A stretch of 30,495 nt of DNA from a virus (lineage: Duplodnaviria > Heunggongvirae > Uroviricota > Caudoviricetes). Within the stretch, counting starts at the first letter, position 1. Each line of letters opens with the position of its first letter. The notes under the pieces are model-generated. The model did no database searches, was not told the origin of the DNA, and saw only the letters and a list, made by a program, of their open reading frames with translations. The translations under genes and the position numbers were made by a program. Where the stretch lies: IMG/VR virus record IMGVR_UViG_2778261162_000001, positions 1-30,495 of that record. One strand, written 5' to 3'. Shown here in pieces: positions 20,783 to 22,093 of this stretch.

Positions 20783-21106
20783 ATGGATGCACAAGCACGC
20801 CGCCGCGAACGTCGCGCAGAGAAACAGGCTCAATGGAAAGCAGCAAATCCCATGTTGGTTGGGGTAAGCGCAAAACCAGTTAACCGCCCTATTCTCTCGC
20901 TGAATCGCAAACCGAAATCACGAGTAGAAAGCGCACTGAATCCGATAGACCTTACGGTGCTGGCTGAATACCACGAACAGATTGAAAGCAACCTGCAACG
21001 TATTGAGCGCAAGAATCAGCGCACATGGTACAGCAAGCCTGGCGAACGCGGCATAACATGCAGAGGACGCCAGAAAATTAAAGGTAAATCTATATCACTT
21101 ATTTAG
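20783..21106 (+). CDS. N: Antiterminator N
   Basis: Translation from the internal Met [107 protein letters not shown] matches lambda N including the Arg-rich motif. Confidence 0.9.
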
Positions 21107-21593
21107 AAAATGCAGATTTAGGGAACAGATAGGAGGCGTTACACCTATGGCATCTCATCCTATGGTTAGAAGGTGGTGCAAATCCTTCGTATTGAAGTAT
21201 GGATTTCACAGAAGATTCATAGCATTGAGCGCAAAGATAGTGCATTGGCTGACCGGTATTTGCCGATTTTTTGAGACGATAAACCACCGTAGCAACAGTA
21301 GGTGTATACATCTCATAGTTTTTCTTTTCCTCTTCCCACTTAGAGGCTCGATTTATCTTTTCTTCAAGCTCAATAATCTTGTCCTTAGAAATCATCAAAA
21401 GCTCATTAAGTGACATTTGCTGCTGTTGGGCATCCATGAGCTTATCGACAAGTTCGTATGTTTTTTCTTTTACTGAGTAGTCTATTTGCATTTTCTGGAT
21501 TTCCTTTACTGCGCCAACAGCACTCATCAGAGCACCTCCGGCACCAGAAACTGCATCTGTAATCCTACTTATTATTCCTTTTTCATCAGACAT
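21099..21593 (-). CDS. Moron protein of unknown function: coiled-coil N-terminal half plus C-terminal CxxC...CxxC zinc-ribbon; antisense to the PL operon
   Basis: 164 aa from ATG at 21593 with AGAGAG Shine-Dalgarno 8 nt upstream; C-terminal motifs CAQC and CHRC; convergent with N, the 3' ends overlap. Confidence 0.6.
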
Positions 21594-21802
21594 ATAAATC
21601 ACTCTCTTACTGTAGGGGTAAGAGGATTTTACTATTTTTCTCGCTGTAGGGGTACACGAGAACCACCGAGCCTGATGTGGTTAAAAGACAGGCATACTAA
21701 TAAACACTGCACTGTGTATTCATTCCAACGAGTGAATACACGGAGCAATGTCGCTCGTAACTAAACAGGAGCCGACTTGTTCTGATTATTGGAAATCTTC
21801 TT

Positions 21803-21831
21803 TGCCCTCCAATGTGAGGGCAGTTTTTTTT
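21803..21831 (+). terminator. Rho-independent terminator (tL-like) on plus strand
   Basis: Stem TGCCCTC/GAGGGCA, 6 nt loop, then a run of 8 T. Confidence 0.7.
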
Positions 21832-21844
21832 GACGGAGTAAACG

Positions 21845-22093
21845 ATGATAAAAACTGATTACCCTGCAGAGCTTAAACAAAAAGTAATAACAGCAATTAA
21901 ATGCTCTTTTATCTCATGTCGTACAGATGAAGAACGATATGTCGTTGAGTGTACAATTGTCGAGTTTCTCACAGCGATGGAATTTACCGCTGCAGAATCA
22001 ATAGATGTATTAAAGCAATCAGACGGAAATGATATTGAAACGGATGATGTTATTGACCGACTAATAAAATCATTCGAAGAAGAAATAGAGTAG
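21845..22093 (+). CDS. Small acidic protein of unknown function
   Basis: 82 aa, Shine-Dalgarno GGAG upstream, C-terminal acidic tail; first gene after the terminator in the PL operon. Confidence 0.5.
   Translation: MIKTDYPAELKQKVITAIKCSFISCRTDEERYVVECTIVEFLTAMEFTAAESIDVLKQSDGNDIETDDVIDRLIKSFEEEIE

Follow-up and report, generated by a model that had tools for sequence, protein, structure and literature searches.

Which function does the gene serve that lies antisense to the early pL operon of this lambdoid prophage, immediately behind N, how is it expressed, and does the small acidic protein encoded next to it belong to the same system? In the initial annotation the product of this gene was not recognised, and the gene was proposed to be a moron for phage defence or abortive infection. 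We are highly confident that positions 21099–21593 on the minus strand represent rip1, a prophage-borne, single-protein defence gene with a predicted P_sieB-type promoter of its own, and that the 82-aa neighbour is unrelated to it. The window, i.e. the whole stretch of 30,495 nucleotides analysed here, carries in this order cI (19445–20077, plus strand), a gene whose product has a signal-peptide-like N-terminus (20074–20478, plus strand), N, rip1 (minus strand), the ORF of 82 codons (plus strand), cIII, kil and the genes for a Rad52-type recombinase and SSB. Hence, as judged from the order of genes from cI and N on the plus strand to SSB, transcription from pL runs from left to right.

The antisense gene and its product

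The N antiterminator gene (20783–21106, plus strand) was recognised by Pfam (N36, E 9.5e-25) and is 97% identical to lambda N. The minus-strand ORF 21099–21593 encodes 164 amino acids when read from the ATG at 21593, while an alternative GTG start codon three codons further 5' would yield a protein of 167 residues; HK446 gp37 and the sequence deposited under PDB 9oox comprise 164 residues each and thus have the same length as the ATG-initiated product. A Shine-Dalgarno-like AAGAGAG (21602–21608, minus strand) is located 8 nt 5' of this ATG and provides a moderate match, in agreement with the ribosome binding site that had been ascribed to the gene. The gene had also been described as lying directly after N. 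Its antisense, convergent orientation holds, but it does not simply follow N: the two genes are arranged tail-to-tail and overlap by 8 bp, with the stop codon of rip1 (TAA) at 21099–21101 and that of N (TAG) at 21104–21106.

A phmmer search of the PDB with the 164-aa protein retrieved entry 9oox, "ring interacting pore 1 (Rip1)", a 164-aa protein present in 12 chains of the entry, with an E-value of 1.4e-105 and identity at 163 of 164 residues. The sole substitution concerns residue 96, which is Tyr here and His in PDB 9oox. The likeness extends to the DNA: over the stretch comprising N, rip1, the 82-aa gene and cIII, identity to HK446 amounts to 99.5%. PDB 9oox is the cryo-EM structure of HK446 Rip1, as credited to Patel et al. 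(Nature 651:1060, 2026). The gene is thus already characterised as Rip1. Indeed, the proposal of a phage-defence or abortive-infection moron proved right, since Rip1 is an experimentally characterised prophage defence; the novelty implied by an unrecognised gene is lost, as a near-identical protein has a solved structure and a Nature paper of 2026. In short, this is a real defence moron, and it is already known.

Remote homology searches and structure prediction, both of which had been suggested as checks, thus yielded the match to PDB 9oox and an AlphaFold2 model, for which, as for the profile search, an alignment of 20 homologues was used. In this model, helices at residues 7–34 and 39–90 make up the helical N-terminal half that had been noticed in the sequence, and a beta-rich domain follows at residues 93–158; this is the fold of Rip1, with its long helical N-terminal half and C-terminal beta-rich domain. 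The coding sequence (21099–21593, minus strand) therewith specifies a Gly/Ala-rich, putatively amphipathic N-terminal helix, a long helix and a C-terminal four-Cys domain of the putative zinc-ribbon type. Residues 7–30 are rich in Gly, Ala and Ser, have the highest hydrophobic moment of the protein (0.42) and the highest hydropathy (KD19 1.28, which is below transmembrane grade), and pLDDT values are low in this part of the model (42–54). The composition and hydrophobic moment of residues 7–30 agree with the amphipathic helix described for Rip1 in the literature. The CxxC...CxxC ribbon mentioned in the initial annotation is formed by Cys121, Cys124, Cys148 and Cys151. Among 69 diverse family members these are the only invariant residues besides Met1, and they are also retained in HkaP of HK620, gp30 of JBD30 and ORF25 of LPB1; the family motifs YR.K and SILQ are conserved along with them. 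Binding of zinc by the four-Cys site is predicted from the motif.

An exhaustive profile search returned 2962 cluster representatives at E≤1e-3, and almost all of the best 150 of these are about 150–175 aa long. Membership in such a family argues that the ORF is more than a product of chance. In the Casadabanviruses JBD30, D3112, DMS3 and LPB1, genes for homologues with approximately 30% identity (E 2e-17 to 4e-18) occupy the position exactly between the two terminase genes, on the opposite strand. A phage of the same group, JBD26, carries Tab in this slot; we rejected the assignment of our gene to Tab, since Tab is a protein of 83 residues with the tape measure protein as its target. The 164-aa protein gave no significant family match in Pfam, NCBIfam or PADLOC (best PADLOC hit PDC-M53B, E 0.019), PHROGs places it in phrog_1244 ("unknown function"), and copies of rip1 in E. 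coli RefSeq genomes are annotated as "hypothetical protein". Such blanks could be taken to mean that the ORF encodes a regulatory zinc-finger protein or is an incidental antisense frame, in either case devoid of a role in defence. We give this reading virtually no credence, given a large conserved family of constant length (~160 aa) with four invariant cysteines, a structure for a protein that differs by one residue and published data on defence by the Rip1 family.

The identification as Rip1 places the gene in a mechanism demonstrated by others for the HK446 protein, from which the protein studied here differs at residue 96 only. According to the account of Patel et al. 2026 given in a review (PMC13434031), a P. 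aeruginosa prophage carries a Rip1 gene flanked by its terminase genes, Rip1 alone is not toxic, and infected cells round up. Escape is ascribed there to mutations that affect the portal in the case of Pseudomonas phages, while those of E. coli phages hit the small terminase. The same account describes a cryo-EM structure in which an 11-mer ring of the small terminase is surrounded by 12 molecules of Rip1, an N-terminal part that is an amphipathic helix, contacts to the ring through the C-terminal half, and release of dye from liposomes by the Rip1-ring complex, which thus forms a pore. Relatives of Rip1 are reported in this review to be widespread in Proteobacteria and mostly prophage-borne. 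A conference report and the introduction of another paper agree with this account. Transferred to the present prophage, Rip1 would be harmless until another phage produces ring-shaped assembly proteins, that is the small terminase in coliphages or the portal in Pseudomonas phages. In that event, the ring would be encircled by twelve molecules of Rip1, which would attach to it with their C-terminal half, and in our AlphaFold2 model this ring-contacting half corresponds to the predicted zinc-ribbon domain. The N-terminal amphipathic helices would form a pore in the inner membrane, and the pore would lead to lysis before virions are finished, thereby aborting the infection.

The gene and its promoter are present in 96 of 5426 complete E. 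coli genomes; the best 12 of these 96 matches are 100% identical. A family model for rip1 is absent from Pfam, NCBIfam release 20 and PADLOC 2.0, and therefore current annotation misses Rip1 in at least 96 of the 5426 complete E. coli genomes and in nearly 3000 sequence clusters. A genuine defence gene was thus picked from raw sequence, which means that an antisense gene with its own promoter within a lytic operon works as a heuristic for discovery.

The promoter region shared with sieB

The 100 bp upstream of rip1 (21594–21694) are common to lambda, P22, HK620, HK629/630 and vB_EcoM-611R5. This region is 87% identical to the stretch of P22 that is annotated with "sieB promoter" and "sieB RNA start site", and its distal part (21640–21694) forms a near-invariant block, which is common to the upstream regions of lambda and P22 sieB and HK620 hkaP and occurs in 128 phage records. 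The putative P_sieB-type promoter of rip1 (21626–21656, minus strand) consists of TGTACC (21656–21651), a spacer of 19 nt and TAAAAT (21631–21626), which align with TGTACC-N19-TAAACT of the annotated P22 promoter. By alignment with the annotated P22 sieB RNA start site (NC_002371), transcription is predicted to start at an A at position 21619 (minus strand), giving a leader of 26 nt, which is unstructured according to folding. A simple sigma-70 consensus scan did not call the rip1 promoter, which has a poor -35 element and the 19-nt spacer; the assignment is therefore based on the likeness to the promoter annotated in P22. On these grounds, the own promoter postulated for the antisense gene appears to be correct. 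Ranade and Poteete are reported to have mapped the P22 sieB promoter in 1993 by RNase protection.

The promoter region contains the direct repeat CTGTAGGGGTA (TACCCCTACAG on the gene strand), 11 nt of which are exactly repeated at 21610–21620 and 21644–21654 and which can be extended to 16 nt with 14 identical positions. In a shuffle control, two matches were found in only 1 of 100 shuffles. The pair had been noticed as 10-bp repeats; the repeats are longer, and the second 10-mer starts at 21645 rather than 21646. The promoter-proximal copy spans the predicted +1 and the distal copy overlaps the -35 region. Both are invariant in the window, lambda, P22, HK620 and vB_EcoM-611R5.

In the alignment with lambda, homology extends through N, ends at the N stop codon and resumes almost exactly at the rip1 start codon, which is the sieB start in lambda. 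The mosaic junction between the upstream block and the differing coding cassettes is thus located at about the start codon. The coding regions behind the invariant repeats are those of SieB in lambda and P22, Rip1 in the window, the distant Rip1 relative HkaP in HK620 and a Rip1 paralogue of 53% identity in vB_EcoM-611R5. As judged from these alignments, the sieB slot holds alternative cassettes behind one promoter. What is new here, modestly, is that unrelated defence genes use one conserved promoter cassette in this slot.

The shared position raises the question whether the gene encodes a SieB-type superinfection exclusion protein that works like SieB of lambda and P22. The position is indeed the same, the promoter region in front of the gene hardly differs from that of lambda and P22 sieB, and HK620 hkaP, the product of which is 27% identical, is annotated as "putative superinfection exclusion protein". 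However, the proteins lack sequence similarity (BLASTP E 0.93 versus P22 SieB and 9.4 versus lambda SieB), 163 of 164 residues match a structurally defined, different protein, and the label of hkaP was given by position only. A location convergent with N under the P_sieB promoter does not by itself make a gene a member of the SieB family, and we regard this reading as extremely unlikely. Orthology to sieB, named in the initial annotation as an outcome that would speak against its proposal, was not found; rip1 is a positional replacement for sieB rather than a homologue.

On the pL-sense strand, the terminator scan and folding revealed a terminator-like hairpin followed by a U-rich tract at 21603–21625 (plus strand). 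This hairpin should not form in the rip1 mRNA, because its 5' arm is located upstream of the predicted rip1 start site. For the same reason we set aside the idea of a hairpin sequestering the Shine-Dalgarno sequence of rip1: with the +1 that homology predicts, its 5' arm would be left outside the transcript. A second hairpin, at 20658–20672, is presumably the boxB of nutL, as judged from the lambda nutL sequence. On the minus strand this boxB hairpin is followed by TAAATTTTTA, and the scan, which matched this T-rich tract, and folding make it the first terminator-like site after rip1 (20672–20658) and a candidate terminator of the rip1 transcript. Antisense transcription of rip1 may therefore extend over the whole of N. 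The same site on the reverse side of boxB could equally end a sieB transcript. A search of Rfam detected no RNA family in 20450–22250.

In the lysogen, the P_sieB-type promoter would drive rip1 in the direction opposite to that of the repressed pL operon, and the resulting transcript would probably traverse N in antisense as far as the reverse side of nutL boxB. Once the prophage enters lytic growth, N-antiterminated transcription from pL would cross rip1 head-on, which may reduce the expression of the gene. A rip1-type gene is placed antisense in a lytic operon in three independent contexts, which are the lambdoid pL operon, the site beside the repressor in 611R5 and the late operon of Casadabanviruses. 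This placement is compatible with the silencing by convergent transcription that was proposed in the initial annotation. One may speculate further that the P_sieB cassette of approximately 100 bp, with its near-invariant upstream block and its two repeats, is a portable, regulated expression module of enterobacterial prophages for interchangeable abortive-infection genes (SieB, Rip1 and the HkaP-type Rip1), in which either the TACCCCTACAG copies would bind a factor or the constant antisense placement would provide self-immunity through head-on transcription at induction; we consider this idea rather doubtful.

The coding sequence also has an internal ATG at Met35 (codon 21491–21489; site 21491–21511), with AAGGA at a distance of 10 nt on its 5' side. 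A Rip1 started at this codon would comprise 130 aa and lack the N-terminal amphipathic helix, and would thereby recall P22 Esc, a truncated SieB that inhibits SieB. As a weaker extension of the above idea, such an internal start could provide a Rip1 without pore helix acting like Esc. Met35 is replaced by Leu in 7 of 20 close homologues, which makes the idea of an internal start weak.

The acidic neighbour and the surrounding prophage

The gene for the 82-aa protein (21845–22093, plus strand) occupies the "ral slot" of the pL operon. It is preceded by an intrinsic terminator of this operon with an 8-bp stem (21802–21823, plus strand) and a run of T8, in accordance with the tL-like terminator noted there; the terminator lies in sequence homologous to the ral-ea10 intergenic region of lambda (lambda 33925–34056), and HK620 is annotated with tL2A/B at the equivalent place. 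In lambda, ral sits between two blocks of homology that are adjacent in the window, and therefore the window lacks ral. The neighbour is small and acidic, as had been stated: it contains 20 Asp and Glu versus 9 Lys and Arg residues and has a pI of 4.3. AlphaFold2 predicts four helices (pLDDT 77), and a structural search with this model gave no informative fold match. Pfam and NCBIfam assign it to no family. The suggestion of an anti-restriction-type protein has a counterpart in the PHROG label of its group, phrog_14587 ("anti-restriction protein"), but it rests on this name only, since BLASTP found no similarity to lambda Ral (E 16).

The initial annotation further considered that the acidic protein could be a partner of the antisense gene. 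A two-gene module is conceivable in which the neighbour, produced from pL during lytic growth, serves as an anti-Rip1 factor for self-immunity, comparable to anti-Tab and Tab. The two genes are indeed adjacent, the neighbour belongs to the lytic pL operon, an arrangement like that of anti-Tab relative to Tab in JBD26, and it is small and acidic. However, only 3 of the 96 rip1-carrying E. coli genomes contain the 82-aa gene in contiguity with rip1, and others have a Ral-family gene at this place. Moreover, each gene occurs without the other: ev099 and vB_EcoP-720R6 encode an identical Rip1 and are devoid of the 82-aa gene, ECP1 carries the 82-aa gene but no rip1, and Kapi1 matches, by DNA and tblastn, only the part of the locus comprising the 82-aa gene and cIII. 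Homologues of the 82-aa protein with approximately 40% identity are encoded by the first gene of an early operon in virulent Skatevirus phages (LPST10) and behind the primase gene in a Jedunavirus, again in phages without rip1, and rip1 of Casadabanviruses has no extra gene beside it. A joint module is accordingly very unlikely in our estimation and the proposed partnership is not borne out. The 82-aa gene is an unrelated accessory gene of the early pL operon, i.e. an independent module outside of the Rip1 system, and no conserved partner of Rip1.

The element as a whole is a mosaic. Its head and packaging region (51–10695) is 98% identical to vB_EcoM-606R2, 611R5 and 683R1, whereas its early region (12437–24523) shares 97% identity with HK446. 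Beside their repressor gene, the vB_EcoM phages have a Rip1 paralogue of their own, which is 53% identical; there are thus at least two arrangements in which this structural module has occurred together with genes of the Rip1 type. The resident portal gene is located at 7422–8888 and that of the small terminase, a Terminase_2 protein, at 10513–11064. When the PDB was searched with the small terminases of the window and of HK446 (HK97-type) and with lambda Nu1, no chain of 9oox was matched; this hints, weakly, that neither the Terminase_2 protein nor the HK446 small terminase is a trigger.

Two further genes of the window deserve mention. A gene for a LacY-type sugar symporter (28902–30149, minus strand; Pfam LacY_symp, E 4.6e-193) identifies the right end of the window as host chromosome and thus the element as an integrated prophage. 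The gene at 20074–20478 overlaps the end of cI by 4 bp and takes the position of lambda rexAB. Its product starts with the signal-peptide-like sequence and belongs to phrog_2651 (unknown function); the HK446 counterpart is annotated as similar to the gene 38 protein of Sf6. It is probably a second moron expressed in the lysogen.

Comparison with known systems

The nearest relative is HK446 Rip1, which agrees with the protein of the window in 163 of 164 residues and in length, and is encoded at the same antisense position after N within flanking DNA of 99.5% identity. The differences are Tyr96 in place of His and a surrounding prophage that is a different mosaic: since the structural genes are 98% identical to those of vB_EcoM-606R2-type phages and not to those of HK446, the resident small terminase and portal differ from their HK446 counterparts. 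Rip1 of the Casadabanviruses (JBD30 gene 30, D3112 orf25, LPB1 ORF25) shares approximately 30% identity (E about 1e-17), the four cysteines, the architecture and the antisense location in a lytic operon, whereas a P_sieB-type upstream cassette is absent from these phages. Their trigger, as reported in the review cited above (PMC13434031), is the portal and not the small terminase.

SieB of lambda and P22 is encoded in the same slot (convergent with N or gene 24); the promoter and leader in front of it are homologous and contain both TACCCCTACAG repeats, and it has an abortive-infection role upon expression from the prophage, whereas the protein sequences are unrelated. In P22, the annotation provides for self-protection by Esc, an inhibitor encoded in frame within sieB, for which no equivalent is known in the case of Rip1. 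A phage antisense RNA is reported by Ranade and Poteete (1993) to switch translation towards Esc. Tab and anti-Tab were compared by description rather than by sequence. Tab, too, is an antisense moron expressed from the prophage, encoded where sister Casadabanviruses have rip1 and directed against proteins of late virion assembly. In contrast to Rip1, the 83-residue Tab of JBD26 blocks tail assembly via the tape measure protein and thus has a different target, is not itself what kills the cell and requires the linked anti-Tab (Patel et al. 2024, PMC10884400).

Zinc-finger proteins that respond to phage rings form the last point of comparison. In RAZR (PD-T7-4), a zinc-finger domain assembles as a ring around large rings of the phage, such as portal or recombinase, and activates an abortive effector (Zhang et al., Nature 651:1051, 2026; PMC13017515). 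This effector is a HEPN RNase, unlike in Rip1, and homology between RAZR and the 164-aa protein was not detected; Pfam detected no HEPN/DUF4145 domain of the RAZR type in the 164-aa protein, and PADLOC reported nothing beyond the PDC-M53B match at E 0.019. The ring-sensing zinc-finger logic is common to both, and RAZR is the closest mechanistic analogue of Rip1.
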